DNA of 64,000 nt from Candidatus Gottesmanbacteria bacterium (GTDB lineage: Bacteria > Patescibacteriota > Microgenomatia > UBA10105 > UBA927), in NCBI GenBank assembly GCA_016218255.1, contig JACREN010000037.1:1514-65513 (forward strand), given 5' to 3'. Both the position numbers and the translations under genes were made by a program. Each line of letters begins with the position of its first letter. Position 1 is the stretch's first letter. Shown piece by piece: positions 12,779 to 51,165 of the stretch. Under the pieces are notes generated by a model. It worked only from the letters and a program-made list of their open reading frames with translations, did no database searches and had not been told where the DNA came from.

Positions 12779-13642
12779 ATGGATTTATCCATTATTATTC
12801 CAAATTATAATACCAAGTTGCTGCTTGAGCGGTGTTTACGTTCTATTTTATTATCCTTGGCAGAAGAAGCGATTCAATATGAAGTTATAGTTGTGGATAA
12901 CGCATCAAAAGATGGTTCTTTGGAGTTTGTACGTCATATATATCCTCAGATATCTTTATTGTCCAATAAAACGAATGTAGGCTATGGTAAAGCGAATAAT
13001 CAAGCTATCCGAACGGCGAGAGGTACCTATGTACTCCTGCTAAATTCAGATATTGTGGTTCAGGCTGATGGAATCGGGTCTCTTTACCGATTCATGCTTT
13101 CTTATGCCCGCATATTTGCAGGTGGAAAACTTCACAATGAGGATGGTACTCCTCAGCCATCGTGCGGTCCTTTTTTCTCGCTGCCAGCAGTGCTCCTGAT
13201 GTTGTTTCTCAAGGGTGACTATTGGGGAGCAACGCGTCGATCTCCGAGAAGCATCACTCGTGTGGATTGGGTATCCGGTGCCTGTCTTATGGGAAAGAGA
13301 GAAGCGTTTGAAGATGTTGGACTGTTTGACGAAAAGATTTTTATGTATATGGAAGAAATTGACTTACTGTATCGTGCTAAAAAGAAAGGATACGGCGTGT
13401 TGTTTTGTCCGTATGCAGAATTCATTCATACCGGAGCCGCGAGCAGCGATAACAGACGAAATCCTGTCGTTAATATATATCGAGGCCTTCTATATTTTTA
13501 TGGGAAGCATTATGGCCTCTTTTCGCTATCCGTCCTTCGGATTATACTTAAGCTAAAGGCATATCTTTCTATATGGATCGGCCGTTTTGCCGGCAGGACG
13601 GATATCGTATCTATTTATGAAAAAGCTCTTGCACTGGTCTAA
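12779..13642 (+). CDS. glycosyltransferase family 2 (possible polyprenyl-phosphate sugar synthase, GtrB/ArnC-like)
   Basis: LSIIIPNYNT…VIVVDNASKDGS…NSD is a GT-A DxD-type signature. Confidence 0.8.
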   Translation: MDLSIIIPNYNTKLLLERCLRSILLSLAEEAIQYEVIVVDNASKDGSLEFVRHIYPQISLLSNKTNVGYGKANNQAIRTARGTYVLLLNSDIVVQADGIGSLYRFMLSYARIFAGGKLHNEDGTPQPSCGPFFSLPAVLLMLFLKGDYWGATRRSPRSITRVDWVSGACLMGKREAFEDVGLFDEKIFMYMEEIDLLYRAKKKGYGVLFCPYAEFIHTGAASSDNRRNPVVNIYRGLLYFYGKHYGLFSLSVLRIILKLKAYLSIWIGRFAGRTDIVSIYEKALALV

Positions 13643-16600
13643 ACAAAATTTTTTTTTGTTGAGCGCAATCGTATGTTCGGTATTTATTCCGTTGTATCCG
13701 AAGTTGCCTCTGGTGGATATCAAAAATACCTGGGTGTATATACGGATTGAGGACTTTCTGGTCGTAGGAGTTCTGTTTTTGTTAGTTATCGCCGTCATGC
13801 GCCGGCAGATTTCGTTAAAGACGCCTCTTACTATGCCCATACTCCTTTTTTGGATTGCCGGAGGTATTGCCACAATGCACGGTATATTGCTGGTGTTTCC
13901 ATCACTTCAGGCAGTATATCCGAATGTTGCTTTTTTAAGCTTTTTACGACGGATGGAATATATGAGTTTATTTTTTGTTGGTTATTTTGCGCTAAAAGAA
14001 AAGCGTCATCTTGCTGCTTTAGTTGTTGTATTAGTTGGTACGGTTCTTGCGGTTTCTCTTTATGGCATTGGACAAAAATACCTTGGGTTCCCAGCATTTT
14101 TGACCATGAATGAGGAATATGCAAAGGGTATTCCCATACGGTTATCACAGCTGTCGCGTATATCGTCAACTTTCAGTGGTCACTACGATTTAGCTGCGTA
14201 CCTGGTGCTGGTGTTGCCAGTATTCGTTAGTCTATTGTTTGGATATACGAAGTATTGGCAGCGGGCTGTATTGATTCTCGGTGTGTTGTTAGGGTTCATT
14301 GCTCTTTTCATGACCGTATCCAGAATATCTTTTTTTGCGCTTTTATTAGCATTGGGATTCGTAGTTTTTCTGCACAAAAGAAAGCTTATTCTACTTACGC
14401 TGCCGGTGACGGTTATCTTTGTGCTTCTCTTTGTCAGTATTTCTCCGCGTGTATTTGACCGGTTTGGCAATACAGTGAAAGCTATTGATGTGGTGATAGA
14501 TGCAAAAACCGGGGATCCTATAGGTCATACTAAGACGGTTCCAAATACATATTTCATGACCAAAATCATCAAACAGCAATATGCTCGGACGATAAAAAAT
14601 ATTTATGGATTTGCGAGTCCATCGGCTTCATTTGTTGTTCCATATCTTGTTTTGCCGGAGCAGGTGGTGCTACTGGCAGAGCCCGATGCGCCGACAGGTG
14701 AAGATTTGCCTCAGGGTACGGGATATATAAACTTGTCTCTCGCTCCGGTGATACGGAAGCTCGATAATTTTTTTTATGAGCCGAAGCCTAGAACAGCAAC
14801 AACAGCTGCAGAAGTTTTTATTATCAACGGCGATTTTTTGCTCAAAAAGGTGTTTACGTACGATCTTTCATTCACCACCAGATTTCAGGGTGAATGGCCA
14901 CGCGCAATGGCGGCGTTTACGAGAAATATTTTGGTCGGGAGCGGATATGGATCTGTGGGCCTTGCGGTGGACAATAGTTATCTTCGAATGTTGGCAGAAG
15001 TCGGATCGCTTGGATTTGTGTTTTTTACCGGTATTTTTGTGGCCCTCGGGATGTATATCAAAAAAATATGGCCAGATATAGACTCCGAACAGTCAAAAAG
15101 TTTTATTATCGGGGTAATGGCAGGCCTGGCAGGGATTGGGGTGAATGCATTGTTTATAGATGTATTCGAGGCGTCAAAAGTGGCGTTTATGACATGGCTG
15201 CTAATTGGAATGGCTTTGGGACTCGCTGCATCATATCAACGGAAGGCATTTAATATGCTTAAGGAATTTAAGCGGATCCTTATCTCAATGCCCTCGATAG
15301 CGGTATTTATATTTCTTCTCATAATGTTGTTGTATTCTCCTCTGATGCGTAATAATTTTGTTGGGGATGACTTTACATGGTTCCGGTGGGTCGCAGATTG
15401 TGGTGAGCAGAATATTTCAGGGTCATGCCCGGTCAACATATCGACGGTTGTACGTTTCTTTACTCACTCGGACGGATTTTTTTATAGGCCGGGAACAAAG
15501 ATATATTTTTTAGTTATGTATACGGTTTTTTGGCTTAACCAAAATGCTTATCACGCCGTATCTCTCGCGTTGCACGGGCTCGTGGCTTTGTTGGTATTTA
15601 TTCTGGCAAATAAACTGATGAAGCAGTCATTTATGGCAGCAGCAGCAGGACTCCTGTTTCTTTTTCTCAGTGGATATTCCGAAGCTGTTCACTGGATATC
15701 CGCAACAGGATTTCTATTCAGTGCGGTATTTATTCTTGTAAGCCTTTTGAGCTTTATTAACTGGGTAGAAAAAAAGAAAATGAGATACGGCATTTTCTCA
15801 ATAGGAGCAATATTTTTTGCACTATCGTTTCATGAAGTCGGCGTTGTGACCCCATTTGTGGTTTTGGCATACAGAAGTATATTTTTGCGCGGCTATCCGT
15901 TGTCGAAAATGTTGGTTGATCGAGTAAGCGCTTTTGTATTTTTTCCACTGCCTCTTTATTTTTTGGTCAGATTTGCAGCAGGTAGTCATTGGCTTAGCGG
16001 TGACTATAATTACAACGTGCTTCGATTGCCGTTCAATGTAGTCGGAAACGCTTTTGGTTATTTCTTGCTGACGGTTTTTGGTTCTGTAACGAGTCCGCTA
16101 TATCAACTTATTCGTGGCGGTTTAAGAACCCATATAGGCATTGCGGCCGTGGTAATTCTTTGTATTTTGCTCTTAGCTATTTGGACTATACGGAATAAGT
16201 ACCATATTGTTCAGCAACAGGACCGTTCTCTTATTGGCTTCGGACTGATCTTTTCTTTCCTGACTCTTTTGCCCTTTTTGGGGCTTGGGAATATCTCTTC
16301 TAGATATAGTTATGTGGCTTCGGTAGGTGTTGCATTCACATTGGTTATTTTCATGAAGTATGTTTATATATTATTAAGGGAAAACGGCACTGCCATTGCT
16401 AAAGCAGGTACAGTAGTCATTATTTCTGTCTATATGCTATTTCAGATAATCCAGCAGCAGCAAATAACCGCGGATTGGTACCAAGCAGGTGAAAAAACGC
16501 GAAGATTTATCGTCTCTATGGGTAGTGCGTATGAGGATTCATGGGCAATTGCTCCAGTCGAATTGCATTTTGTAAATGTGCCAATACGGCACGGGGAAGC

Positions 16601-16793
16601 CTGGGTGTTTCCGGTTGGAATGCCTGATGCGGTTTGGCTAATTTATCGTAATCCAAATATTCGGGTATTTTCCTGGGCTACTCTCCCCGAAGCATTTTCC
16701 GTAATTGATGCAGGTGTGAAAACACAAAGGGTTTTTGAATTTGACGCCAGCGGTAAAGTAGTTGAGCGCATAAAGCCACCTGATATTCAATGA
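13617..16793 (+). CDS. fusion membrane protein: N-terminal O-antigen ligase/polymerase-like (Wzy_C-type) domain plus C-terminal GT-C-like (PMT/ArnT-type) polytopic domain
   Basis: The N-terminal half has the Wzy_C periplasmic-loop signature (ILVGSGYGSVGLAVDNSYLRMLAEVGSLG). The C-terminal half opens with a DD motif in its first loop (NNFVGDDFTW) and at least 10 helices. An alternative start lies at 13587. Confidence 0.65.
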   Translation: MKKLLHWSKQNFFLLSAIVCSVFIPLYPKLPLVDIKNTWVYIRIEDFLVVGVLFLLVIAVMRRQISLKTPLTMPILLFWIAGGIATMHGILLVFPSLQAVYPNVAFLSFLRRMEYMSLFFVGYFALKEKRHLAALVVVLVGTVLAVSLYGIGQKYLGFPAFLTMNEEYAKGIPIRLSQLSRISSTFSGHYDLAAYLVLVLPVFVSLLFGYTKYWQRAVLILGVLLGFIALFMTVSRISFFALLLALGFVVFLHKRKLILLTLPVTVIFVLLFVSISPRVFDRFGNTVKAIDVVIDAKTGDPIGHTKTVPNTYFMTKIIKQQYARTIKNIYGFASPSASFVVPYLVLPEQVVLLAEPDAPTGEDLPQGTGYINLSLAPVIRKLDNFFYEPKPRTATTAAEVFIINGDFLLKKVFTYDLSFTTRFQGEWPRAMAAFTRNILVGSGYGSVGLAVDNSYLRMLAEVGSLGFVFFTGIFVALGMYIKKIWPDIDSEQSKSFIIGVMAGLAGIGVNALFIDVFEASKVAFMTWLLIGMALGLAASYQRKAFNMLKEFKRILISMPSIAVFIFLLIMLLYSPLMRNNFVGDDFTWFRWVADCGEQNISGSCPVNISTVVRFFTHSDGFFYRPGTKIYFLVMYTVFWLNQNAYHAVSLALHGLVALLVFILANKLMKQSFMAAAAGLLFLFLSGYSEAVHWISATGFLFSAVFILVSLLSFINWVEKKKMRYGIFSIGAIFFALSFHEVGVVTPFVVLAYRSIFLRGYPLSKMLVDRVSAFVFFPLPLYFLVRFAAGSHWLSGDYNYNVLRLPFNVVGNAFGYFLLTVFGSVTSPLYQLIRGGLRTHIGIAAVVILCILLLAIWTIRNKYHIVQQQDRSLIGFGLIFSFLTLLPFLGLGNISSRYSYVASVGVAFTLVIFMKYVYILLRENGTAIAKAGTVVIISVYMLFQIIQQQQITADWYQAGEKTRRFIVSMGSAYEDSWAIAPVELHFVNVPIRHGEAWVFPVGMPDAVWLIYRNPNIRVFSWATLPEAFSVIDAGVKTQRVFEFDASGKVVERIKPPDIQ

Positions 16794-18226
16794 AAAATCT
16801 AACTCCATTCGCTATAGCGATTGTTATCATGGTTGCTGTCGCGGCTCGTTTCTATCATATAACTGGTTCTGTGGCAGATTGGCACAGCTGGAGACAGGTT
16901 GATACCGCGGCAGTTGCTAGGAATTTTGTAAAGTTCGGTTTTGACCCGTTTCGTCCGAGATTTGATGACTTGTCTAATATTCCTTCGGGAAAAGATAATC
17001 CATCGGGATGGCGCATGGTTGAGTTTCCCTTGTATCAGTCTATGGCATACGGAATATGGCGACTTGCCCCAGGTGTTCCGATGGAAATTATGCTTAGACT
17101 GGTGACGGTTGGCGCTTCCGTGGGTACACTTATAATTCTTTATGTTCTTATGGCAGCAACGGCGGGAAAGCTTGCCGCCTTCTTTGGCGCGTTTTGTTAT
17201 GCGGTATTGCCCTACAGTATCTATTACGGACGAGTAATCCTCCCTGACCCACTTATGGTTTTTTGGGCGGTGTTAAGTGTCTATTTGGTTTTTTTGGCGA
17301 CGGAAAAAAAGAGAGATTGGGGATTCATGTTATGTGCGGGCATTGCTGGAGCGTTTGCCTTGCTTGCTAAGCCTATGGGATTGTTTTTATTATTGCCGAT
17401 TCCCTATCTAATGCTTCGGAGGAACGGTTTTTCTATATATTCATTCATCCGTATGTTAGTTTATTCGCTTATTTGTTTGTTTCCCTTGTTTTGGTGGCGA
17501 CAATGGATTTTACAATATCCCGAAGGAATTGCAGTCTATGGTTGGCTTTTTAACGAGGGGAATATTCGTTTTAAGGGTGCATGGTTTTATTGGTTATTTG
17601 CGAAGCGCGTTGGAGAGCTTATATTGGGATATTGGGGTCTTATTCCTTTCGGAATCGGCATGCTTCTCGTATCATCAAAAAAAGAAGGGTGGTTGTTTCG
17701 TTTGTGGGTGATTGGTGGACTCCTCTATTTTATTGTGATTGCGCGAGGAAACGTGCAGCATGATTATTATCAGATTCTTCTTATCCCCATTATCTGTGTG
17801 TATCTCGGCAAAGGATTCGCTTTTCTTTTTTCCAATGCGGTCTTTTCGAAAGCTGTCAGTTACCAGCTGTCAGCGATTAGTTTTTTGTTATTATTTTCTT
17901 TTTCCTGGTATACCGCGAGAACCTATTATTGGATTAACCGGCCTGAAATCGTTGAAGCCGGAAAAGCTGCAGACAGCCTGTTGCCGGCCGGCGCGAAGGT
18001 AATTGCTTCATATAACGGGGATACCTCATTTCTTTATCAGACTAACCGTCAGGGTTGGCCCTTGGGTTTTGAGATAGATAAAAAAATAGAAGCCGGCGCA
18101 ACTCATTATGTTACGGTGTCTCCAACAGATAACGACGGGGAGACAATGGCCTTGGCCAGTAGATTTACTGTTCTCGTTCGAAACGAACGATACGCGATCA
18201 TCGATTTAACGAAGCCGAAGCGGTAA
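16790..18226 (+). CDS. GT-C fold glycosyltransferase (ArnT/PMT-like, COG1807-type)
   Basis: Polytopic protein. The first loop carries HSWRQVDTAAVARNF. A C-terminal soluble region is present. ATGA overlap with the upstream gene. Confidence 0.65.
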   Translation: MKNLTPFAIAIVIMVAVAARFYHITGSVADWHSWRQVDTAAVARNFVKFGFDPFRPRFDDLSNIPSGKDNPSGWRMVEFPLYQSMAYGIWRLAPGVPMEIMLRLVTVGASVGTLIILYVLMAATAGKLAAFFGAFCYAVLPYSIYYGRVILPDPLMVFWAVLSVYLVFLATEKKRDWGFMLCAGIAGAFALLAKPMGLFLLLPIPYLMLRRNGFSIYSFIRMLVYSLICLFPLFWWRQWILQYPEGIAVYGWLFNEGNIRFKGAWFYWLFAKRVGELILGYWGLIPFGIGMLLVSSKKEGWLFRLWVIGGLLYFIVIARGNVQHDYYQILLIPIICVYLGKGFAFLFSNAVFSKAVSYQLSAISFLLLFSFSWYTARTYYWINRPEIVEAGKAADSLLPAGAKVIASYNGDTSFLYQTNRQGWPLGFEIDKKIEAGATHYVTVSPTDNDGETMALASRFTVLVRNERYAIIDLTKPKR

Positions 18227-23536: not shown

Positions 23537-24175
23537 ATGATTTATACCTTCCTAAAGAGATGCATTGATTTGATCGGCGGTCTTTTCCTTATGATTTTTT
23601 TTGGTCCCATATGCATATTGACCGCAATTGCCATCGCTCTTGATACACCGGGTCCAGTCTTGGCGGATACCCCTCCCAGAGTTGGTAAAAACGGTAAATT
23701 TTTTAAGTTGTATAAATTCCGGTCGATGGTTGTTCATGCGCATGAAAAATTGCGGAATGATCCTCGACTGGCGAAGTTGTATAGTGAATATAAACGAAAT
23801 AGTTACAAACTTCGAGAAGATCCCCGCGTTACGACAGTGGGGCGTTTTATACGGAAGCATTCGCTCGACGAAATACCACAACTGATAAACGTTTTGAAAG
23901 GTGATATGAGTTTAGTCGGACCCCGGCCGTATTATCCCGACGAGCTTGTTGATCAACAAAAGAAATATCCGCACACAAAAGAACTGGTGAAGATTGTACT
24001 TTCGGCTAAGCCGGGCATCACCGGGATGTGGCAGGTGTCCGGAAGAAGTGAAGTGAATTTTGATAAACGGATTAAGATGGATGCAGATTATGTACGTCAG
24101 CGTTCCCTAATTCTGGACATTTTTGTACTCCTGAAAAGTCCGTGGGCGATGATTTCCGGCAAGGGAGCGGTATAA
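23537..24175 (+). CDS. polyprenyl-phosphate sugar-phosphate transferase (bacterial sugar transferase family, initiating enzyme)
   Basis: N-terminal transmembrane segment. KFRSM and [12 protein letters not shown]…[13 protein letters not shown] motifs. Confidence 0.85.
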
Positions 24176-30236: not shown

Positions 30237-31913
30237 ATGTTTCGCATGTGGCTGATTTTTTCATTATTCGCACTTCTCTTTTGTTTTATTTCCTTACGAT
30301 TATTTTATTGGCAAGTGATAGCGGGAGATCGGTTGAAAGCGCGTGCAGCATCTCAATATAGTGCTGAATTTATACTACCAGCGTCTCGTGGGAAAATACT
30401 TGCTTCTGACTCGAGTCCACTAGTGATTAATCAGCCTGCCTTTTTAGCGTACGCGGAACCTAAAAAAATAAAGAATATTTCTCATTTCCTTTCCTCAGTT
30501 CACACTGTTCTGGGAGCAAATGAAACTGATATAGATGGTTTGTTGGCTGATGAGGAGCGATCATGGGTGCTTCTTGCGCATAAAGTAGAGCTTCCTGTGG
30601 TTGAAAAACTGAAAGCGCTTGGTTTGTCAGGTTTAGGTTTTGAAAAAGAGCCAAAGCGGTATTATCCCGAAGCGTCGATGGCAGCCCATGTATTGGGGTT
30701 TGTCGGATCTGATGAGAATGGACGAGATAAAGGGTATTTCGGATTAGAAGGATATTACGATCGGGATCTCCGCGGAAAAGACGGAGTGGTTGAGTTGGAA
30801 AAAGACGCGAGAGGTATGCCGATTCTTATAGGTGAAGCCAAAAGGATTGAAGCTGAAGACGGGAGAACCCTTGTGCTGTGGGTGGACAAGAGTATCCAAA
30901 ATATATTGGAAAATCGGTTATCAGAAGGAATACGGAAGTACGGTGCACAGGAAGGATCAGTAGTCATTATGGATCCACAGACTGGGGGTATTTTGGGAAT
31001 GGTCAGTTTTCCTTCATACCATCCGCAAAATTTTCTGTCCTATGAAAAAACACTGTACAAAAATCCAATTGTAGCTTCATCGTATGAGCCGGGTTCTACG
31101 TTTAAAGCACTCGTTATGAGTGCAGGCATACAAGAAAAGGTGATATCACCAACAACGACCATGGAAGAAATAGGGCCTCTGAATGTCAATGAATATGCCA
31201 TCCGAACATGGAACAACGAATATCACGGAACGATAAATATGACAAAAGTGTTGGAGCGGTCATCGAATGTAGGCATGGTCTTTGTTGCACAAAAATTGGG
31301 CAAAGAGAGCTTGCTTCGTTATATCCGGGATTTTGGATTTGGTCAGCCGACCGGTATCGATGTGGAAGAGGAAAGCTCTCCAGCACTTCGGGACAGGAAA
31401 AATTGGACTGAGATAGACTACGCGACTGCCTCATTTGGGCAAGGCATCGCGGTGACTCCGATTCAAATGGTTCGGGCAGTTGGTGCACTTGCCAACGGCG
31501 GTTGGATCATGGAGCCGCACATAGTTAAGGAAATTATTGAATCTCGCGGTAGGGTGCTCAGGATAAAGCCAAAAAAAATCCGTCAGGTTATTAGTCCGGC
31601 CACGTCAAGAATTGTAACGGAAATGATGGTAGCGGCTGTGGATAACGGTGAAGCCAAATGGGCGAAGCCATCCGGCTACCGAATAGCCGGGAAAACAGGC
31701 ACGGCACAGATCCCAGTAGCAGGGCATTATGATGAAAAGAAAACAATTGCCTCATTTGTTGGTTTTGCACCGGCCGATAATCCAAAATTTGTTATGCTGG
31801 TCACGCTTCGGGAGCCAACAAGTTCGCCGTGGGGGTCGGAAACCGCGGCTCCGCTATTTTTTACGATTGCCAGAGACCTTTTTCGGTATTTTGGCATCAC
31901 ACCGGGCCAATAA
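30237..31913 (+). CDS. ftsI: peptidoglycan D,D-transpeptidase FtsI (class B PBP)
   Basis: N-terminal transmembrane segment. Active-site STFK (SYEPGSTFK). Transpeptidase domain. Confidence 0.85.
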   Translation: MFRMWLIFSLFALLFCFISLRLFYWQVIAGDRLKARAASQYSAEFILPASRGKILASDSSPLVINQPAFLAYAEPKKIKNISHFLSSVHTVLGANETDIDGLLADEERSWVLLAHKVELPVVEKLKALGLSGLGFEKEPKRYYPEASMAAHVLGFVGSDENGRDKGYFGLEGYYDRDLRGKDGVVELEKDARGMPILIGEAKRIEAEDGRTLVLWVDKSIQNILENRLSEGIRKYGAQEGSVVIMDPQTGGILGMVSFPSYHPQNFLSYEKTLYKNPIVASSYEPGSTFKALVMSAGIQEKVISPTTTMEEIGPLNVNEYAIRTWNNEYHGTINMTKVLERSSNVGMVFVAQKLGKESLLRYIRDFGFGQPTGIDVEEESSPALRDRKNWTEIDYATASFGQGIAVTPIQMVRAVGALANGGWIMEPHIVKEIIESRGRVLRIKPKKIRQVISPATSRIVTEMMVAAVDNGEAKWAKPSGYRIAGKTGTAQIPVAGHYDEKKTIASFVGFAPADNPKFVMLVTLREPTSSPWGSETAAPLFFTIARDLFRYFGITPGQ

Positions 31914-31929
31914 ATGCTATAATAATTAC

Positions 31930-33111
31930 ATGCTTCGGAGCCTCAAGTGGCTTTATCATCTTCTTGTTGCCATATGTGCCGCATTGTGGTTTCGTATGCC
32001 GGCCAGAAAGCTTATAGTCGTTGGTGTCACGGGTACTGACGGAAAAACGACTACGACAAGTCTCATTTATGAAATCTTGAAGCTTTCGGGATACAAAGTT
32101 TCAATGATCACCTCAGTGAATGCGGTAATCGCAGGAGTCCCATACGATACTGGTTTTCATGTGACAACACCAACGGCATGGTGGGTGCAGAAGTATCTCC
32201 GAGAGGCAGTTAATCATGGCGATACTCATATGGTTCTTGAAGTGACTTCCCACGGACTTGCTCAAAATAGAGTATTTGGCATATCGTTTGCTGTCGGAGT
32301 TTTGACTAATATTACCCATGAGCATTTAGATTGGCACCGATCGTTTGATGATTACGTAAAAACGAAGTTGATGCTTCTTAAGAGTGCAAGTGCGGCAGTT
32401 CTTAATCGCGATGACGCAGTGATTTATGCCAAGGCGGTTGAACGTCTTCGAAATAAGAAATTGGTGTTATACGCGATACGGAGAGATGCTCTAATTACGC
32501 CAAAAACATATCCGTTTATTACGAAGCTGCCGGGGGAATTTAACCGGTATAATTGCTTGGCTGCATTGGCGGCAACGTATGCTTTAGGAGTTCCCAAGAA
32601 AAAAGCGCTCTCTGCAATTGCGCGTTTTCGCGGTGTGCCGGGAAGAATGGAGGTTATAGTTCGTAAACCATATGTAGTTATTGTCGATTTTGCCCATACA
32701 CCAAATGCACTTATTCAGGCGCTCAGAACCGTTCGGAAATTAGCCAAGAAGCGTCTTATCCATGTATTTGGGAGTGCCGGACTGCGAGATCACAGTAAGC
32801 GCCCACTTATGGGAAAAGCATCCAGTTCGTATGCCGATATAATTGTTCTTACGGAAGAGGACTATCGGACAGAGGATGTAAATATTATTATGGACGAATT
32901 GACAGCAGGGATTGAATCCGGAAAAGAGGTTCACCGTATCGTGAACCGTCAAGAGGCGATTGTATATGCTATGAAGATAGCGCGTCCTGGAGATGTGATT
33001 ATGATAACAGGAAAGGGGCACGAGAAGAGTTTATGCCGAGGTACGACAGAATATCCCTGGAGTGACCAGGAGGAAGTCAGAAAAAATTTACAGCTGCTCG
33101 TAAACACATGA
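31930..33111 (+). CDS. murE: Mur ligase, MurE-like (UDP-MurNAc-L-Ala-D-Glu:diamino acid ligase) lacking the usual N-terminal domain
   Basis: P-loop GVTGTDGKTTTTS lies only ~30 aa from the start, preceded by a hydrophobic segment (LKWLYHLLVAICAALWF). Central and C-terminal Mur ligase domains are present. A longer upstream ORF would overlap ftsI by 185 nt and is rejected. Confidence 0.8.
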   Translation: MLRSLKWLYHLLVAICAALWFRMPARKLIVVGVTGTDGKTTTTSLIYEILKLSGYKVSMITSVNAVIAGVPYDTGFHVTTPTAWWVQKYLREAVNHGDTHMVLEVTSHGLAQNRVFGISFAVGVLTNITHEHLDWHRSFDDYVKTKLMLLKSASAAVLNRDDAVIYAKAVERLRNKKLVLYAIRRDALITPKTYPFITKLPGEFNRYNCLAALAATYALGVPKKKALSAIARFRGVPGRMEVIVRKPYVVIVDFAHTPNALIQALRTVRKLAKKRLIHVFGSAGLRDHSKRPLMGKASSSYADIIVLTEEDYRTEDVNIIMDELTAGIESGKEVHRIVNRQEAIVYAMKIARPGDVIMITGKGHEKSLCRGTTEYPWSDQEEVRKNLQLLVNT

Positions 33112-33854
33112 CGCAAATAAATTATCCGTACTATACATCAAAACTGCTCTCTTCTGTGCCGGGCTTAATACATGGATTTTCTACGAAAAGAATGGGCGAC
33201 ATGAGAAACCGAAAGGCGAGAAAATTATTTCTTTCGCAGTTGTCTGTTCGCGATATATTTCTTTCTATGGCCGAACAGGTGCATGGTACATCAATCACCA
33301 TTCTTGAAAGTTTAGATGTTGTGACTGATACTAAGGCTGTCGGATCTGACGGTATCGTGTCGAAAGCAATCATGAAAAATGATACCCACCATGTATTAGG
33401 TGTGCGCGTGGCGGATTGTGTGCCAATAATAGCCGTGGATCCAGAAGCCAGAGTTATTGGTGTGGCTCATGCTGGATGGAAGGGCACCATTGGGGGGATA
33501 TCGGGAACGTTACTCAAGTCTATGAAGAAGGTTGGCGCAAAGATGGATCGAGTTTTAGTTTGGGTTGGTCCTCACATCGAGAAATGTTGCTATAGCGTTT
33601 CTTATGATAGAGCATTGAGATTTGTGCAGGCGTTTCATGGAAATCCAACTATTGCATCAAAAATTGGGGCTACCTGGCATGTGGATATCGGCAATGCAAA
33701 TGTGATCCAGTTAACGAATATGGGTGTTCGACCGGATAATATCGACATGCTTTCCGCGTGCACCCGTTGTCAGGCTGATGACTTTTTTTCATATAGAAGA
33801 GATTCAAAGAATTCCTTTGGGGAAATGCTTGGAGTTGTTGGATTCCGTGAATAA
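33108..33854 (+). CDS. pgeF: purine nucleoside phosphorylase/laccase-domain protein YfiH (PgeF family)
   Basis: VADCVPII…GVAHAGWKGT is the DUF152/PgeF signature. Confidence 0.8.
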   Translation: MTQINYPYYTSKLLSSVPGLIHGFSTKRMGDMRNRKARKLFLSQLSVRDIFLSMAEQVHGTSITILESLDVVTDTKAVGSDGIVSKAIMKNDTHHVLGVRVADCVPIIAVDPEARVIGVAHAGWKGTIGGISGTLLKSMKKVGAKMDRVLVWVGPHIEKCCYSVSYDRALRFVQAFHGNPTIASKIGATWHVDIGNANVIQLTNMGVRPDNIDMLSACTRCQADDFFSYRRDSKNSFGEMLGVVGFRE

Positions 33855-33859
33855 GGCAT

Positions 33860-35281
33860 ATGAATATTGATTGGGAAGAAATACATTCAATTCATTTTGT
33901 TGGTTTGAAGGGCGTGGCTATGACTGCGCTTGCTGTGTGGGCAAAAGAGGCTGGTTTCCGGGTTAGCGGTTCTGATGTGGATGATATTTTCCCCACGGAT
34001 GAAATATTAGCCGATGCGAATATCCGCGCGCACGTGGGTTTTGACTCTCAAACACTAAAGAAAAAGCGTCCGGACCTCGTGATTTATACCGGAGCGCATG
34101 GAGGTCAGGATAATGATGAGGTGAGAGAGGCAAAATCATTAGGAATTCGCATTATGTCTCATGGGCAAGCATTGGGAGAGGTGATGAGGAGAAAGCGACA
34201 GATATCGGTTGCGGGAAGCCATGGAAAAACGACGACAACGGCAATGATTGCGACTATTTTGTGCTCTGCTGGTAAAGATCCATCCTATGCCATCGGGTGC
34301 GGTAAAATTTTTGGCTTGGGTCTGCCCGGAAGAAGCGGCTACGGCGATTGGTTCCTCGCTGAGGCAGACGAATATGTTACTGATCCTCATCACGACATGA
34401 CACCGAGATTCCTGTGGCAAAATCCGGAAATACTTGTAGTGACGAATATAGATTTTGACCATCCGGACGCATATTCATCGTTGGGCGAAATTCAGCAGGC
34501 CTTCGTAAAGCTGGCTTCGCAGCAACAGGGAAGACGAGTAACCATTGTGAATGCAGATGATGAAGCAAGTGCGGTACTTTTGGGCGATGGTTTGAATGAT
34601 ATCACCACATACGGTCTTTCTCCGCGCGCAGGGTTACGCGTCTTACATGTTGGATTTGGTGAAAGGAGGACTTTTTTTACATTGTCGGAAAATGGTGTTC
34701 CTGTCGGAGAATTCACTATAAAGGTTCCGGGTCTTCATAATGTGGTAAATGCCGCTGCGGCAGCTGCTGCAGCTCGGTCTGTTGGTGTGCGTTGGGATGA
34801 TATAAAGGCGGGATTATTATTATTCGGAGGAACGAAGCGGAGGTTCGAAGAGATTGGCAAAATTCACGGTTGTACGGTATATGATGATTATGCCCATCAT
34901 CCTAAAGAAATACAGGCCACATTGGCAGCTGCGCGTGCGTGGTATCCAAAGCAAAGAATCATAACGGTTTTTCAACCACATACATATTCGCGCACGAAGG
35001 CATTGCTTGCTTACTTTGGAGTGAGTTTTGATAAGTCCGATATTGTCGTAATTGCGGATATCTACGCATCAGCGCGGGAACATGACACGCTTGGTATAAC
35101 CAGCGGAGATCTGGCGTCTGAGATACGGAAGCGGCAGGTCAATGTTCATCAATTGCACTCATATGATTCTGTTTCAGCATTCCTGTTGAGAGAAGGTCGT
35201 GATGGGGATATTATGATTTTTATGGGGGCCGGAGATATAGCCGGATGGGGACAACAATTTGTCTCGGAGATGACGCAATAA
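33860..35281 (+). CDS. murC: UDP-N-acetylmuramate--L-alanine ligase
   Basis: N-terminal Rossmann domain. P-loop AGSHGKTTTTAM. Mur ligase C-terminal domain. Confidence 0.85.
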   Translation: MNIDWEEIHSIHFVGLKGVAMTALAVWAKEAGFRVSGSDVDDIFPTDEILADANIRAHVGFDSQTLKKKRPDLVIYTGAHGGQDNDEVREAKSLGIRIMSHGQALGEVMRRKRQISVAGSHGKTTTTAMIATILCSAGKDPSYAIGCGKIFGLGLPGRSGYGDWFLAEADEYVTDPHHDMTPRFLWQNPEILVVTNIDFDHPDAYSSLGEIQQAFVKLASQQQGRRVTIVNADDEASAVLLGDGLNDITTYGLSPRAGLRVLHVGFGERRTFFTLSENGVPVGEFTIKVPGLHNVVNAAAAAAAARSVGVRWDDIKAGLLLFGGTKRRFEEIGKIHGCTVYDDYAHHPKEIQATLAAARAWYPKQRIITVFQPHTYSRTKALLAYFGVSFDKSDIVVIADIYASAREHDTLGITSGDLASEIRKRQVNVHQLHSYDSVSAFLLREGRDGDIMIFMGAGDIAGWGQQFVSEMTQ

Positions 35282-35286
35282 TCAGT

Positions 35287-36270
35287 ATGAAATCTACTAT
35301 AGAAGAGCTAAAAGAAGTGTTGGGCGACCGTCTACACATAAATGTACCTTTGGCTCCTTATACCACTCTAAAGATTGGCGGCTTAGCAGACGCATGGTGC
35401 GAGGTGCATTCTGTGGATGATTTGGTTGAGGTTGCTACAGCAGCTCGAATACGGAATATACCTGTAACTTTATTGGGTGGCGGGTCAAATGTGCTTATCA
35501 GCGATAAGGGCATTCGTGGACTGGTAATAAAAAACAATACTGAATCAATTTCTATGAGAGGGGCCAGGGGGAAGCTCAGCGCTGGGAAATCAGAGCGGCT
35601 CGTCTATGTGGAGGCTGATAGCGGCGTAGTGATGAATAAACTTGTCCGGTTTACCTGTGATGAAGGATTGGCTGGGCTAGAGATGCATCTGGGACTTCCT
35701 GGAACCGTAGGGGGGGCTTTATATATGAATTCTAAATGGATGCGTCCCGAAGGTTATGTTGGGGATGTCGTATATCAGGCAGAAATATTAGACGAAAAGA
35801 ATATCCGACGGATAGTACCAAATTCGTATTTTCAATTCGGATATGACTATAGCAGTATTCAGAAAACTCACGATATCGTTCTTCGTGTTGTGTTTGTGTT
35901 AGCGCAAAGTGATGTTAAGCATCTGTGGCAAATTGCGAACGCCAGTATTGCATATAGGAGACAAACGCAGCCTCAGGGGGTGCGAAGTCCAGGCTGTACA
36001 TTTCGAAATATATCTGCTGCTCAGGCGTTAATTTCGTCGTTGCCAGAAGGTAGTACATCGGCGGGTTTTTTGCTAGATCATGCCGGGGTAAAGAAATATT
36101 GCGTCCGCGACGCGGAAATATCAAATGTTCATGCAAATTTTATTGTCAATAAAGGAAAAGCTACTGCAGATGATGTGGTACAATTAATAAATAGAGCAAA
36201 AGAACAGGTTAAACGGCAATTCGGAGTGACTCTTGAGGAAGAAATTGTACGATTGGGAGAATTTTCATGA
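35287..36270 (+). CDS. murB: UDP-N-acetylenolpyruvoylglucosamine reductase
   Basis: FAD-binding TTLKIGGLADAW…LLGGGSNVL. MurB C-terminal domain. Confidence 0.85.
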   Translation: MKSTIEELKEVLGDRLHINVPLAPYTTLKIGGLADAWCEVHSVDDLVEVATAARIRNIPVTLLGGGSNVLISDKGIRGLVIKNNTESISMRGARGKLSAGKSERLVYVEADSGVVMNKLVRFTCDEGLAGLEMHLGLPGTVGGALYMNSKWMRPEGYVGDVVYQAEILDEKNIRRIVPNSYFQFGYDYSSIQKTHDIVLRVVFVLAQSDVKHLWQIANASIAYRRQTQPQGVRSPGCTFRNISAAQALISSLPEGSTSAGFLLDHAGVKKYCVRDAEISNVHANFIVNKGKATADDVVQLINRAKEQVKRQFGVTLEEEIVRLGEFS

Positions 36271-37607
36271 GCATGCAGACATTAATTATACAAGGTGGGA
36301 TCCCTTTGCGGGGTGAAATTGCGGTTGCAGGAGCTAAAAATGTGGCTCTAAAGGCATTTGCTTCTGCAATATTAACTGACGACAGGGTAGAAATACTAAA
36401 TGTTCCTCTAATTGCGGATGTTTATTACATGCTTGATGTTTTAAAAAGCCTCGGTATAGAAACCGATATCCATGATCATTCGGTTCAGATTCAGAGCTTT
36501 TCCTTGAAGAATACGACTGTGCCGATTGATATAGGTGCTCGACTTCGGACATCTTCTTTGGTTGTCGGTCCGCTTTTGGCGCGGTTTGGTGAGGCTCGTA
36601 TTCCAAATCCTGGCGGATGCCGGATCGGCGCCAGGCCAATAGATAGACATATTCATGGGCTCCAGAAGATGGGCGCGAAGATAACGTATCATCCAGAGGA
36701 TGGTTTTTTCTATTTGCAGGCGTCGAAGCTGCATGGAGCAGAAATAGAGTTCGAGAAAAATACACATACCGGAACCGAGGCACTGATATTAGCAGCAGTG
36801 CTCGCAGAAGGAGAAACCGTGCTAAAAAATGCTGCCTGTGAGGTTGAGGTGGATGACCTTATCCGGTTTTTGGTTTCAATGGGTGCACAAGTTAAACGAA
36901 TCAAGGAGCGGGAAATTGTGATTCGTGGAGTATCGAAGCTTCATGGGGCCAGATTCTCATTAATGCCGGATCGGAATGAAGAGGTAACATTTGCGCTCGC
37001 AGCTGTAGCAACCGGTGGAGACGTGATTGTTCGTCATTCTAGACGTGCTCATTTAGGTGCTTTTTTAAAGGTATTTGCTCAAGCAGGAGGATCACATGAA
37101 GTAATTGATGATACAACGACTAGATACGTTCAAAAAGGGCCGATTCAGTCAACCGATATCGTGACAAAGCCACACCCTGGCTTTATGACGGATTGGCAGG
37201 CACCATGGGCTCTCTATATGACGCAGGCAGTCGGGATATCAACGATACACGAGACGGTGTTTGAGAGTAGATTTTCCTATGTGTCAGAATTGCGCAAAAT
37301 GGGAGCACACATTGATTTTTTTGACCCGCCAGTTCAGGACCCTGAATCGTATTATAATTTTAACTGGAGTGACCGACTCGAAGGATACCATCAGGCAATA
37401 CGGATTTTTGGACCAACTCCGCTTCACGATGCGGTTGTAGAAATTGATGATCTGCGCGCAGGTGCAACCGTGCTTTTAGCTGCGCTTGTCGCTTCTGGAA
37501 CTAGTTATATTCACGGTGTCGAGCAGATTGACCGCGGATATGAGAATATAGAAGAGCGTTTTCAAAAGCTTGGTGCCCGTATTACACGAAAGGAGAAGGA
37601 ATTATGA
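36267..37607 (+). CDS. murA: UDP-N-acetylglucosamine 1-carboxyvinyltransferase
   Basis: IQGGIPLRGEIAVAGAKNVALK and the EPSP-synthase fold. ATGA overlap with murB. Confidence 0.9.
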   Translation: MSMQTLIIQGGIPLRGEIAVAGAKNVALKAFASAILTDDRVEILNVPLIADVYYMLDVLKSLGIETDIHDHSVQIQSFSLKNTTVPIDIGARLRTSSLVVGPLLARFGEARIPNPGGCRIGARPIDRHIHGLQKMGAKITYHPEDGFFYLQASKLHGAEIEFEKNTHTGTEALILAAVLAEGETVLKNAACEVEVDDLIRFLVSMGAQVKRIKEREIVIRGVSKLHGARFSLMPDRNEEVTFALAAVATGGDVIVRHSRRAHLGAFLKVFAQAGGSHEVIDDTTTRYVQKGPIQSTDIVTKPHPGFMTDWQAPWALYMTQAVGISTIHETVFESRFSYVSELRKMGAHIDFFDPPVQDPESYYNFNWSDRLEGYHQAIRIFGPTPLHDAVVEIDDLRAGATVLLAALVASGTSYIHGVEQIDRGYENIEERFQKLGARITRKEKEL

Positions 37608-38911
37608 GCAGGGAGTTAATTGCAGTCGTGTTAGCAGGCGGTGCAGGAAGCAGATTCTGGCCGATCACAACAAATAAGCTGTTATTACCCTTTTTAGGAC
37701 GAAGGTTTATTGATTTTTCAGTGGCTGATGTAATGCCTAAAGAGATTACCCGCATGGTAATCATAACGAGCACTGAAAATAAAGAAACCATTGACTCAAT
37801 GCACTTTGGAGTTCCTACGGTGACGGTCTTGCAGCATAGGCCGATGGGTATGGCAGACGCACTGCTCTCTGCCTCCTCAGAATTGGAAAACGCCCGTTTG
37901 CTCGTTATAATTGCCGACGACTTACTGGATAGAAAAATATTGAAGTCTGTTGCAGGATATGCTGATAAAAAAGAAATATATGGCGCTATTCCCGGCTGGA
38001 AAACACCATCATATTTCCCAGGTGGATACATTATGACAGTGGGTGATCGGATCGTAAACATCGTTGAAAAACCGGGTGAAGGAAAAGAACCGAGCAATTT
38101 CGTCGCTGTATCTGGGCACTATATTGCAGATAGCAATGCGCTTCTAAAGGAAATACGGGCGGCACAAAGCACTGCCGATGATGTATATGAGCGAGCGGTA
38201 TCCGTGCTTATGCGGAGAGAACAGTTTTGCATGGTTCCATATAGTGGTAATTTTATTTCCCTGAAATACCCCTGGGATGTACTATCTGCGATGGATTATC
38301 TTCTGAAATCACGATTACGGCCCCACAGGGGGAAAAACGTATCGATACGTGATTCAGTCATTATTGAAGGAGATGTATACATAGATGATGGTGTTCAAAT
38401 ATTTGAACATACAAAAATTGTTGGCCCCTGTTATATTGGGAAAAATTCGATTATCGGCAACAATAACTTAATTAGACACAGTCATATCGGTGAAAATTGT
38501 GTGAGCGGATTTAACACAGATATTACACGCAGTTACATAGGAAATAACTGCTGGTTTCATAGCAATTATATTGGGGATAGCTTCCTTGAAGGGAATATCA
38601 GCATGGGGTCCGGTACTGTACTTGCTAATCTTAAACTTGATGAGGCCGGAATTGGGTCGCAGGTAAAAGATGTCCGTATTGAAACTGGACTGAACAGACT
38701 TGGAGCAGTGATTGGTCAGGGGGTGCGTCTTGGAGTGAATATTAGCGTGATGCCGGGAGTAAAGATCGGTAGTGGGTCTTTTGTCGGAGCGGGTGTCATT
38801 CTTGATAAAGATATACCGGAACATAGCTTTTGTAAAGCGACCGCAGGGTATACCATCGGAAAGAACAACATATCCGTTGCCCCTCGGAGCGCAAATCAGT
38901 TTAAATATTAA
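37604..38911 (+). CDS. sugar-1-phosphate nucleotidyltransferase with C-terminal LbH acyltransferase domain (GlmU-like)
   Basis: N-terminal AVVLAGGAGSRFWPIT is an NTP-transferase motif. The C-terminal 150 aa are hexapeptide repeats. It is adjacent to murA. Confidence 0.6.
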   Translation: MSRELIAVVLAGGAGSRFWPITTNKLLLPFLGRRFIDFSVADVMPKEITRMVIITSTENKETIDSMHFGVPTVTVLQHRPMGMADALLSASSELENARLLVIIADDLLDRKILKSVAGYADKKEIYGAIPGWKTPSYFPGGYIMTVGDRIVNIVEKPGEGKEPSNFVAVSGHYIADSNALLKEIRAAQSTADDVYERAVSVLMRREQFCMVPYSGNFISLKYPWDVLSAMDYLLKSRLRPHRGKNVSIRDSVIIEGDVYIDDGVQIFEHTKIVGPCYIGKNSIIGNNNLIRHSHIGENCVSGFNTDITRSYIGNNCWFHSNYIGDSFLEGNISMGSGTVLANLKLDEAGIGSQVKDVRIETGLNRLGAVIGQGVRLGVNISVMPGVKIGSGSFVGAGVILDKDIPEHSFCKATAGYTIGKNNISVAPRSANQFKY

Positions 38912-39634
38912 ATGAAGCGGCAGTCTATAATTATTCTTCATGGTTGGGGTTTGTCAGGCGAAAGGTTTTTGCCGTTAGCTGAAGAACTTCGGGCACGAGG
39001 TTATACGGCTTATGTGCCAGACATGCCGGGTTTTGGTGCGAGCAGTGTTCCCAAAAATTCCCTCACATTGGCTGATTATGCGAATTTTCTTAATATATTT
39101 ATACAGAAACATGATATCCGTAATCCTGTATTGATTGGCCATTCTTTTGGCGGAAGAGTGTCGATCAAATATAACATGATGTATCCAAAAATTGTTCGAG
39201 CACTTATTTTAACCGGAACGCCGGGATTTACCCCTGTAAACAGGAAAAAATTACTGTTATTTATTTTTTTGGCAAAAGTTGGTGGAGCTTTTTGGTCTTT
39301 ACCGCCATTTTGTTTGTTTAGAGAATTTGTTCAGAAATGGTATTACTACGCAGTCGGTGCAAGAGATTTTTATCGCGCGGAGGGCTCAATGAGACAAACG
39401 TTTAAAAATATTGTTCAAGAAGATTTGGAATTGGCGATGAAGTCTGTGAAAATTCCTTGTCTTCTGCTGTGGGGTGGGCAGGATACGATAGTGCCGATTT
39501 CAATTGCGCATAAAATGGCAGCTATCATGGGGACGAGTACTTTAATAACCATTCCCGATTTTGGTCATAACGTGCCATATAGAAATTCCGCCAGGTTTGC
39601 TCATCTCGTGGCGCAATTTATTCATCGCATATGA
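38912..39634 (+). CDS. alpha/beta-fold hydrolase
   Basis: HGWG…GHSFGG nucleophile elbow with a C-terminal His. Confidence 0.7.
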   Translation: MKRQSIIILHGWGLSGERFLPLAEELRARGYTAYVPDMPGFGASSVPKNSLTLADYANFLNIFIQKHDIRNPVLIGHSFGGRVSIKYNMMYPKIVRALILTGTPGFTPVNRKKLLLFIFLAKVGGAFWSLPPFCLFREFVQKWYYYAVGARDFYRAEGSMRQTFKNIVQEDLELAMKSVKIPCLLLWGGQDTIVPISIAHKMAAIMGTSTLITIPDFGHNVPYRNSARFAHLVAQFIHRI

Positions 39635-41094
39635 ACTCATTGCTTGACGTAATTTTAGTGATTTGGTGGTTTCGCATCGTCGCGAATATCGCCTCGTGCA
39701 TACAATTGTGGTATATAAAAGAATACCGTATCGATCGCATGTTGGTCCATCTCAAAACAGAAGAGGGCAAAGGCGTTCTGTGGATGGATTTTCGGAGGCC
39801 AAGAATATCTCCAAAGACGATCGTATTGGGTATAAGCTGTGCACTGGCGGTTTACACGCTATATAGTTCTCTTTCGATTCATCCATTGTTGCGGTTGTTT
39901 GTCATAGACTGCCTTACGTTTCCAATAGTTTCGGTTTTAGTCTTGCTATTTCAAGTTCCCACACACCTATATCATGAAATTATCATCGCGAGGGCCGATG
40001 CGAAAATCCGAAACCACGCACCGCTTGTAGTAATCGGCATCACCGGAAGCTATGGGAAGACTTCTATTAAAGAATTTCTTTCTGTTATTCTCTCTTCCCA
40101 ATATCGGATCCTCAAAACTGAATCCAGCAAAAACTCAGCTATCGCGGTCGCTGAGACGGTTATAACAAAACTTCTTCCGGATCATGAGATGTTTGTGGTC
40201 GAAATGGCAGCATATAAAAAGGGCGAAATCGCGCGTATCGCCGCGATGGTACACCCATCGGTTGCGATAGTCGGTCCTATAAATGCGCAACATCAGGACC
40301 TTTTCGGTTCGATGGAAGAGACTGTGCGTGCGAAGTATGAGCTCGTTGAGGCATTGCCGAATAATCAGATAGTGGTAATGAATGCAGATAATGCATATAC
40401 GAGATCGATGGGTGAAATGGCAGCTCGTCATGGTAAAACTGTATGGTGGTATACGACAAAAAATTGGTCAATTCCTAAGACAGGCGCAATTTTTCGGGCA
40501 GAGCATATACAGACTGATGAGCGACAAATAGCGTGTATTATTAGTTTTAGAAGGGAACGCGAAAAAATTGCTGTTCAGATATTGGGAGAGCACCAAGCCG
40601 GTAACATAGTGGCAAGTATTGCCGGTGCCGTGGCTGCAGGTATGAAGTTTTCGGATGCTGCGCGTGCAGCATGCCGGATTAGACCGTTTACAAAAACGAT
40701 GCAACCCGTATTGGGAGTAAACGGCGCTGCTTTCATCGATGACACATTTAATAACAATCCGGATGCTGCGCTAGCGGCAATAGAATACCTTAGGGGGAGG
40801 AAGGGCAGAAAAATTTTAGTATTTCAGCCTATGATTGAATTGGGAAAATATGGTGAGGCAAGTCATTTTGATGTCGGGAGGGCAGCAGGATCCGTTTGTG
40901 ACGATATTTTATTAACGAACCGGAATTATTTCGATTCGTTTGTGGGCGGTGCTCGAAGCGTGAAGGCATCGAAAAAAGTACGCGTGCTATCGCCAAGCAA
41001 AGCTGCGGGGTATATCCGGTCCAGAATCGGGCCCAATGACACAGTATTATTTAAGGGTAAAGAGGCGGAACGCGTTTTGGGTAAACTTATATGA
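39631..41094 (+). CDS. murF: MurF-like Mur ligase (UDP-MurNAc-tripeptide--D-Ala-D-Ala ligase) with the N-terminal domain replaced by ~3 transmembrane helices
   Basis: P-loop GITGSYGKTS at ~aa 137. EMAAYKKGEI and VMNADNA motifs match MurF. The first 120 aa are hydrophobic segments. Confidence 0.8.
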   Translation: MNSLLDVILVIWWFRIVANIASCIQLWYIKEYRIDRMLVHLKTEEGKGVLWMDFRRPRISPKTIVLGISCALAVYTLYSSLSIHPLLRLFVIDCLTFPIVSVLVLLFQVPTHLYHEIIIARADAKIRNHAPLVVIGITGSYGKTSIKEFLSVILSSQYRILKTESSKNSAIAVAETVITKLLPDHEMFVVEMAAYKKGEIARIAAMVHPSVAIVGPINAQHQDLFGSMEETVRAKYELVEALPNNQIVVMNADNAYTRSMGEMAARHGKTVWWYTTKNWSIPKTGAIFRAEHIQTDERQIACIISFRREREKIAVQILGEHQAGNIVASIAGAVAAGMKFSDAARAACRIRPFTKTMQPVLGVNGAAFIDDTFNNNPDAALAAIEYLRGRKGRKILVFQPMIELGKYGEASHFDVGRAAGSVCDDILLTNRNYFDSFVGGARSVKASKKVRVLSPSKAAGYIRSRIGPNDTVLFKGKEAERVLGKLI

Positions 41095-43195: not shown

Positions 43196-43196
43196 T

Positions 43197-44213: not shown

Positions 44214-44228
44214 TCGCTTGCTTTTGGT

Positions 44229-44257: not shown

Positions 44258-44269
44258 GACATCACGGAT

Positions 44270-44650: not shown

Positions 44651-44654
44651 CATT

Positions 44655-45701: not shown

Positions 45702-45706
45702 TCGAT

Positions 45707-51164: not shown

Positions 51165-51165
51165 T

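Follow-up and report, generated by a model that had tools for sequence, protein, structure and literature searches.

Wzy-type polymerases and ligases of lipid-linked glycans and the lipid-phosphate-sugar transferases of GT-C class A (GT-C(A)) are normally separate proteins, and their physical cooperation is largely unknown; the known Wzy enzymes are, to our knowledge, stand-alone proteins. The acceptor of the ligase WaaL is the lipid A-core, while bacteria of the Candidate Phyla Radiation (CPR) are regarded as monoderms without an outer membrane, lipopolysaccharide (LPS) or lipid A-core. In this study we analyzed a 64,000-nt stretch of DNA of a CPR bacterium, Candidatus Gottesmanbacteria (contig JACREN010000037.1, positions 1,514 to 65,513; below, the window), in which a single gene encodes a polypeptide of 1058 amino acids (aa) composed of a WaaL/Wzy-like N-terminal half (N-half) and a C-terminal half (C-half) similar to PMT_2-type transferases.

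Described relatives of the two halves provide the framework for comparison. Escherichia coli WaaL (PF04932; CAZy GT121; structure 7TPG) requires residues R215, R288 and H338, which are conserved in PglL (PMC3643930). The ligases carry His, whereas the aligned residue is Asp or Glu in SEDS proteins and in almost all of the Wzy-type polymerases assigned to clan GT-C1 (PMC10920833). These polymerases (GT119, GT125-129) share the GT-C class B (GT-C(B)) fold. The relatives of the C-half are PMT_2/TMTC-like GT-C(A) proteins (PF13231; kin of GT39 PMT and GT83 ArnT). The three-component systems GtrA/GtrB/Gtr and CsbB/GtcA/YfhO modify glycans on the extracytoplasmic side (PMC11127046).

The fusion gene is an uninterrupted open reading frame (ORF) of 1058 codons plus a stop codon, starting with ATG at 13617 and ending with the stop codon at 16791-16793 on the forward strand; an alternative in-frame TTG upstream of this ATG (at 13587) would extend the product to 1068 aa. 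The 1058-aa form is 100% identical to MBI5449440.1 of Candidatus Gottesmanbacteria, deposited as "O-antigen ligase family protein", which bears out the single intact polypeptide reported in a preliminary description of this DNA, made from its letters alone.

The gene is a genuine, conserved join of a GT-C(B) (Wzy/WaaL-like) and a GT-C(A) (PMT_2-like) module. With each GTDB species represented by one genome, a scan yielded 581 relatives, the best 80 loci of which (according to record titles, from Gottesman-, Levy-, Roizman- and Woesebacteria) were translated and compared with the genes of the window. The N and C parts were present in a single ORF in every one of these 80 best-matching species-representative loci. 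In addition, a search of a protein collection revealed more than 120 full-length relatives (approx. 1010-1096 aa, 49-71% identity) in Gottesmanbacteria and other Patescibacteria. The recurrence of the single ORF in 80 independent genomes and in more than 120 protein clusters excludes, with near certainty, an artificial union of two neighbouring genes by misassembly or a frameshift. Such an artefact could be invoked only because, in contig L090, the N and C parts were called as two genes that overlap by 11 nt at GATGAAAAATAAATAC (positions 2940-3010). The break in L090 coincides with an A5 run, and removal of one A restores an in-frame fusion of approx. 1041 aa; this split ortholog, the only one found, is probably the product of an indel, and it was rejected as unreliable. 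Two proteins of 836 aa (P0126) and 769 aa (P0169), considered as candidates for a different architecture, were also rejected as N-terminally truncated calls; the contig of the former (L074) contains a broken N part upstream.

Literature searches directed at this fusion or at CPR glycan gene clusters gave no description of the fusion. The fusion is thus apparently undescribed, although both enzyme classes are already known. The preliminary description had called it unusual, which holds in this sense only, because it is the standard arrangement in all 80 best-matching genomes, which represent at least four CPR lineages by name. The check for divided orthologs proposed there gave the same result, with fused genes throughout and L090 as the only split.

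The AlphaFold2 model of the full-length protein (pLDDT 76.6, pTM 0.70) and that of the N-half (pLDDT 80.7, pTM 0.75; 12 membrane helices) agree with the proposed division into two membrane modules, the C-half forming a separate module with GT-C(A) matches in Foldseek searches. The distribution of Lys and Arg residues in the short loops (positive-inside pattern) places the N-terminus and the linker (aa 539-557) in the cytoplasm and the large loop outside. With 12 transmembrane (TM) helices followed by this K/R-rich linker, both catalytic loops are placed outside the membrane.

The top match of the N-half among PDB structures in Foldseek was WaaL (7tpg_B; E 1.9e-4, probability 1.0, TMt 0.59), and the peptidoglycan polymerases FtsW and RodA ranked after it. 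Like WaaL, the N-half has a 12-TM fold and a TM9-TM10 loop containing the signature G-x-G ... [H/D]-N-x9-G-xx-G. This extracytoplasmic loop comprises 179 aa (aa 276-454), and the Wzy_C motif occupies its last ~14 residues. The extracytoplasmic insertion of ~170 aa in the preliminary description corresponds to this loop, of which approx. 130 aa (aa 287-416), rich in beta strands and without counterpart in WaaL, are inserted relative to the Pfam model Wzy_C. When aa 287-416 were removed in silico, the fusion matched positions 2-148 of this 149-position model with 31.9 bits (gathering cut-off, 31.7 bits). The N-half is therefore a complete Wzy_C domain split by an insertion, and the Wzy_C-type assignment made earlier was recovered by the Pfam scan only after this segment had been deleted. 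NCBIfam gave weak matches of the N-half to PEP_O_lig_1 (a putative O-glycosylation ligase; the top match) and IctB.

The inserted segment (aa 287-416) on its own matched no Pfam family. It contains a nearly invariant motif, PTGEDLPQGTGYINL (aa 359-375; nt 14691-14741). The region of this motif had a pLDDT below 50, and is thus a conserved yet unmodelled loop, whose E-L-P-x-G..Y core is kept in stand-alone relatives of the N-half. Overall, these relatives have ~60 aa less, and the region matched by Wzy_C spans ~195-220 aa in them, compared with ~250 aa (aa 222-~470) in the fusion; as this region is ~30-55 aa shorter, the difference in length lies largely in the insertion. Of four stand-alone homologues compared with Wzy_C, three scored 33.9-41.9 bits, above the cut-off, and one (P0407) scored 28.5 bits, below it.

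We then compared the catalytic residues with the ligase motif H[NSQ]x9Gxx[GTY], which includes H338 of E. coli WaaL and H349 of PglL. In E. coli WaaL, H338 lies within H-N-x9-G-xx-G (HNEIIEAGSLKGLMG). The equivalent of the fusion, contained in the stretch GSGYGSVGLAVDNSYLRMLAEVGSLG quoted in the preliminary description and located at aa 441-466, is D452-N-SYLRMLAEV-G-SL-G, in which the spacing is that of WaaL but His is replaced by Asp. All 223 retrieved homologues carrying the motif, stand-alone relatives included ('ATDNDYLR.LGETG'), have Asp at position 452. The fusion thus lacks the His that is essential in WaaL and PglL, and has an acidic residue at this position, as do the Wzy-type polymerases. 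Two Arg residues, R236 (TVSR) and R422 (TTRF), are invariant and occupy the places expected, from the motif context, for the two arginines of WaaL that bind undecaprenyl diphosphate (Und-PP). A weak hhalign alignment paired R236 with LTQTR215 of WaaL, and R236 is the likely counterpart of R215.

The replacement of His by Asp, together with the view of CPR bacteria as organisms without LPS, makes it more likely that the N-half is a polymerase, or a ligase with a different acceptor, than that it is a lipid A-core ligase. Of the preliminary assignment to a ligase or polymerase, the WaaL-like fold was confirmed; the ligase part was not, as the Asp makes a polymerase the better guess. For the same two reasons the deposited ligase name is doubtful and probably wrong.

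The C-half (about 11-13 predicted helices, in line with the 10 or more counted earlier) was modelled mostly with a pLDDT of 72-96, with one low block near aa 791-800. NCBIfam gave no match to it, and a whole-family profile (A1) produced nothing relevant among PDB sequences. A search with the C-half alone, however, revealed weak matches to PMT_2 proteins with TPR repeats, which share with it the motifs F-x-DD after the first helix (seen in the distant PMT_2/TPR relatives P0180-P0182), G-F-(F/Y)-R-P, H-x-x-S-x-x-L-H, (S/H)-E-(A/S)-x-x-W-x-S and R-Y-x-Y. When a 14-sequence profile of the C-half (A2) was aligned by hhalign with one of these proteins, P0182, the probability was 98.4% (E 4e-15, 283 columns), and P0182 itself exceeds the Pfam cut-off for PMT_2 (28.8 versus 26.1 bits), which is also reached by a distant stand-alone relative of the C-half (P0282, 27.0 bits). 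An exhaustive search with the A2 hidden Markov model retrieved 89,047 cluster representatives when the threshold was E<=1e-3; at E<=1e-30 the number was 1,441.

Foldseek searches with the full-length model were led by PglB, AglB, Pmt4, Pmt1/2 and STT3, followed by EmbB, DPY19 and AftA; WaaL, at rank 5, matched the N-half. The acidic pair noted in the preliminary description, D584-D585 of NNFVGDDFTW (aa 579-588), proved to be invariant in both A1 and A2 and lies 6-7 residues past the helix formed by aa 558-578. GT-C(A) enzymes carry their catalytic acidic residues at this place, after the first helix. A further ~45 positions of the C-half, with many polar or charged residues among them (e.g. 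R624, H646, H653, E740, R785, D796, N807, N811, R833, N892 and R896), are invariant across homologues that are 29-52% identical, and stand-alone paralogs of the C-half retain the same residues. The profile link to PMT_2/TPR proteins, the GT-C(A) fold matches and the invariant DD after the first helix together identify the C-half as a GT-C(A)-type transferase.

The C-half thus resembles the PMT_2/TMTC-like enzymes in being a multi-pass domain with an acidic pair after its first helix, and it differs from them in being fused behind a Wzy_C module and in having no direct Pfam match. In place of the C-terminal TPR repeats it has a small alpha/beta domain with invariant residues P989, A995, P999 and G1001, which by analogy with the TPR-bearing relatives is probably extracytoplasmic. 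Comparison by BLASTP and hhalign revealed no similarity of the C-half to the product of the PMT-like gene downstream of the fusion or to the 1136-aa membrane protein encoded upstream, and both were rejected as paralogs. The features of the locus are listed in Table 1.

Table 1. Position in the window of the fusion gene, its structural elements and neighbouring genes
Feature	Coordinates	Strand	Remarks
Soluble GT2 gene	12779..13642	+	287 aa; overlaps fusion start by 26 nt
Whole fusion ORF (MBI5449440.1)	13617..16793	+	1058 aa + stop; single ORF in 80/80 related loci
N-half, 12-TM WaaL/Wzy_C-like (GT-C class B) module	13617..15230	+	aa 1-538; AlphaFold2, Foldseek
TVSR motif, invariant R236	14313..14324	+	alignments A1/A3; start of Pfam Wzy_C match
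Beta-rich insertion, TM9-TM10 loop	14475..14864	+	~130 aa (aa 287-416); DSSP strands in both models
Catalytic loop TTR422FQGEW ... GSGYGSVGLAV-D452-N-x9-G-xx-G	14874..15014	+	WaaL motif with invariant Asp for His
Cytoplasmic linker SYQRKAFNMLKEFKRILIS	15231..15287	+	aa 539-557; 5 K/R; pLDDT <50 for aa 543-554
C-half, GT-C class A-like glycosyltransferase module	15288..16790	+	aa 558-1058; PMT_2/TMTC-like, outside every Pfam model
NNFVGDDFTW, D584-D585	15351..15380	+	first extracytoplasmic loop of C-half
C-terminal alpha/beta domain, motif VNVPIRxGEAWVFPVG	16539..16790	+	aa ~975-1058; pLDDT ~81-92
PMT/PMT_2 GT-C gene	16790..18226	+	478 aa; ATGA overlap (4 nt) with fusion stop
Bac_transf polyprenyl-phosphate phosphoglycosyltransferase	23537..24175	+	Pfam 198 bits; NCBIfam EPS_sugtrans/WbaP-like
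dcw-type cluster	30237..55193	+	directly downstream of the operon; several Mur-ligase paralogs

The overlaps of the fusion gene with both of its neighbours reveal that it is part of a tightly packed operon with translational coupling. The separate PMT-like GT-C gene that had been noticed directly downstream exceeded the cut-offs of both Pfam PMT (37.3 bits) and PMT_2 (36.1 bits). Apart from the Bac_transf phosphoglycosyltransferase (PGT), the operon encodes a UDP-glucose dehydrogenase, two epimerase/dehydratases, a ManC-like nucleotidyltransferase, an acetyltransferase, a DUF4012 protein and 7-8 glycosyltransferases (2 GT2 genes and 5-6 GT4-type ORFs). As judged from family assignments, this gene content is that of a lipid-carrier-dependent surface glycan pathway. 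The operon is located just upstream of the dcw cell-wall cluster.

The locus is comparable to those of Wzx/Wzy pathways in combining a Bac_transf PGT with many glycosyltransferases, and differs in that neither a Wzx flippase nor a chain-length regulator was recognised in it. With the three-component systems it shares the presence of a GT-C beside a GT2 gene within a polysaccharide locus and, presumably, the action of this GT-C on a lipid-linked polymer beyond the membrane. In contrast to those systems, the GT2 enzyme of the fusion locus lacks TM helices and did not specifically match an undecaprenyl-phosphate (Und-P)-sugar synthase, no GtrA-family flippase was found, and the GT-C is covalently joined to a polymerase/ligase-like enzyme. 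The GT2 protein encoded beside the fusion gave a partial match to ArnC (E 1e-3); since both GT2 enzymes of the operon lack TM helices and produced only weak, partial matches, neither looks like a GtrB/ArnC-type enzyme. The window contains no LPS genes, and neither an LCP gene nor a separate ligase gene was found in it.

Several other ORFs of the region deserve mention. A 521-aa membrane protein (6786-8351, forward strand), with a weak match to an NCBIfam MmpA-like model, is a candidate flippase; its gene is conserved upstream of the GT4 and acyltransferase genes in many related loci. A 1136-aa protein (3012-6422, forward strand) combines ~10 TM helices, located within its first 430 aa, with a large non-membrane region and one more TM helix at the C-terminus; this protein gave no Pfam, NCBIfam or PDB sequence match and showed no profile similarity to the C-half. 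Single-sequence searches of the PDB with these two proteins returned nothing. The end of the 1136-aa gene is overlapped by a small ORF (6275-6796, forward strand), probably of ~126 aa if read from an internal Met, with 3-4 TM helices. It matched no family, and a role as a small lipid-sugar flippase would be speculative.

An ORF of 192 aa (10461-11039, forward strand), which encodes an N-terminal GT4 domain only and overlaps the start of a full GT4 gene (11014-12177, forward strand), may belong to a glycosyltransferase gene that is split or frameshifted; alternatively, it may mark another start further upstream. The DUF4012 protein (684 aa, a single TM helix; 24142-26196, forward strand) is encoded directly after Bac_transf, and is also present in related loci that have only the N-half. 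The dcw region includes a FemAB-family gene (42915-44213), a SEDS gene (48288-49385) and a gene for a DUF2079 membrane protein (53745-55193), and a second SEDS gene is located at 58200-59282.

The order of genes around the fusion is nearly invariant in the related loci: (521-aa membrane protein), GT4, hexapeptide acyltransferase, GT2, fusion, followed by PMT-like GT-C, GT4, GT2, GT4, GT4 and (ManC). The PMT-like gene follows the fusion in every locus that reaches that far, and a GT2 gene stands beside these modules in almost every architecture seen. Dozens of loci with this Patescibacteria-type operon in the same gene order, L012, L019 and L021 among them, carry the title 'uncultured Gammaproteobacteria bacterium', which looks like a generic or wrong taxonomic label.

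Each of the halves also occurs alone. In other Patescibacteria, stand-alone relatives of the N-half (481-519 aa, ~34% identity; three of the four compared pass Wzy_C) occupy the same slot, in the order GT2, N-half, PMT-like, GT4 ... Bac_transf, DUF4012, and no relative of the C-half was found in the N-only loci examined. Stand-alone paralogs of the C-half (P0172 and P0173; 481-483 aa) are found in a lineage whose operon has the order hexapeptide acyltransferase, fusion (1060 aa), GT2, C-half paralog, PMT-like (L091, 191-7111; L002-L004), i.e. with an additional GT2 and GT-C besides the fusion, which amounts to a duplicated pair. Since these genomes carry the fusion as well, P0172 and P0173 were rejected as orthologs that lack the N-half. 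The existence of N-only genes and C-only paralogs in related lineages indicates that both halves are autonomous modules, and the C-half gives the impression of an accessory activity that supplements a core pathway. The clusters of N-only lineages contain an LCP (LytR_cpsA_psr) gene, in L005 and L006, and also an unrelated PMT_2-type gene, which in L005 has a weak TMEM260_N match; the genes concerned are located at 643-1653 and 2853-4355 in L005 and at 899-2305 in L007.

In our view these observations are best accounted for by a bifunctional enzyme that acts outside the cytoplasm, in a lipid-carrier-dependent pathway for a surface glycan of this Microgenomatia bacterium. Its N-half would be Wzy-like and its C-half a lipid-phosphate-sugar transferase; we give this interpretation a probability of roughly 0.55. 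From the architecture, folds, motifs, topology, conservation and operon context we infer the substrates, the order of reactions and the preference for a polymerase over a ligase as follows. The Bac_transf PGT would initiate the lipid-linked glycan, and the GT4 and GT2 enzymes would complete the repeat unit on Und-PP, after which it would be flipped across the membrane. The N-half would bind the Und-PP-linked glycan via R236 and R422, and Asp452 would serve as the base that activates the acceptor, most likely in a Wzy-like polymerisation or, alternatively, in a transfer to a non-LPS acceptor.

The C-half, tethered by the short cytoplasmic linker, would use its DD pair to extend this glycan, at the outer face of the membrane, by a sugar taken from a polyprenyl-phosphate donor, a step analogous to those of the three-component modification systems (PMC11127046). 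The fusion would fix the two activities at a 1:1 ratio, side by side. The coupling of polymer handling with Und-P-sugar-dependent decoration, suggested in the preliminary description, is plausible, and the presence of the same fusion within a conserved operon in all 80 genomes suggests that two steps outside the membrane are probably physically coupled.

Several results weigh against this interpretation. The native fusion scored 17.2 bits with Wzy_C (model positions 2-66), below the gathering cut-off, which was exceeded only marginally after deletion of the insertion. A direct hhalign comparison of the fusion family with E. coli WaaL was not significant, so that R236 and R422 are paired with the arginines of WaaL by context only, and the equivalence of Asp452 and His is based on motif alignment and spacing. 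The C-half gave no relevant Pfam match even at E<=1, and its Foldseek matches were modest (E ~1e-2, TM-scores 0.3-0.4). The operon has no recognisable GtrB/ArnC-type Und-P-sugar synthase, library scans of the window revealed neither a GtrA-type flippase nor any match to a MOP/Wzx family, and a clear Wzx could not be recognised. Moreover, as some lineages keep the N-half only, the C-half appears to be dispensable for the core pathway.

The N-half might instead be a true ligase or O-oligosaccharyltransferase (WaaL/PglL/WsaB-like) that transfers the glycan to protein (S-layer, pilin), a glycolipid or the cell wall, while the C-half decorates the glycan or primes the acceptor. WaaL as the top solved-structure match, the O-glycosylation ligase model as the top NCBIfam match, the NCBI family name and the lack of a separate ligase or LCP gene in the window agree with this alternative, which we nevertheless regard as unlikely: the His required in WaaL and PglL (PMC3643930) is here an invariant Asp, which is the pattern of polymerases and SEDS proteins (PMC10920833), the operon has no second recognisable Wzy candidate, and the LCP gene of a related locus could perform the attachment.

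An alternative assignment of the C-half starts from PglB, AglB and STT3, users of lipid-diphosphate-oligosaccharide donors that are among its top Foldseek matches. The C-half would then act like an oligosaccharyltransferase (OST), moving the Und-PP-linked polymer of the N-half en bloc to the final acceptor, and the protein would be a polymerase and a ligase in one chain, which could pass its product straight to the next step in a window without an LCP or ligase gene. The sequence link, however, leads to PMT_2/TMTC-like proteins, and the related families GT39 and GT83 use lipid-phosphate-monosaccharide donors according to CAZy (PMC10920833). No WWD-type OST motif was seen in the C-half, and N-only lineages keep the same operon without this apparently accessory half, which renders the OST-like function quite improbable. 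More doubtful still is a role of the C-half as a pseudo-glycosyltransferase, a membrane scaffold or regulator without catalytic function that acts e.g. in chain-length control or localisation of the N-half. Such a role would be compatible with the lack of a match to any curated family and of a recognised cognate lipid-phosphate-sugar synthase or flippase, but not easily with an invariant DD and ~45 further invariant positions among homologues only 29-52% identical, or with the retention of the same residues by stand-alone paralogs.

Beyond the bifunctional enzyme proposed above, one may speculate that the fusion is a self-contained machine of a polymerase plus a transferase, hitherto undescribed in kind, in which the C-half either transfers the finished chain en bloc, replacing WaaL or LCP, or inserts lipid-phosphate-sugar residues during polymerisation; we hold this for a rather long shot. 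In the second variant, one polypeptide would build a heteropolymer from two classes of lipid-linked donor. If the speculation is true, the position next to the dcw cluster, together with the occurrence in all 80 loci, would suggest that Microgenomatia possess a major envelope polymer that is still unknown.

The retention of the fusion in 80 of 80 loci makes it a natural 'Rosetta stone', which predicts that two extracytoplasmic steps take place on the same lipid-linked glycan, side by side. It also discloses a gap in annotation, since ~500 residues with kin in ~89,000 protein clusters are missed by the Pfam models. For the uncultured CPR bacteria that carry it, the operon adjacent to the dcw cluster provides a concrete lead toward their surface glycan.

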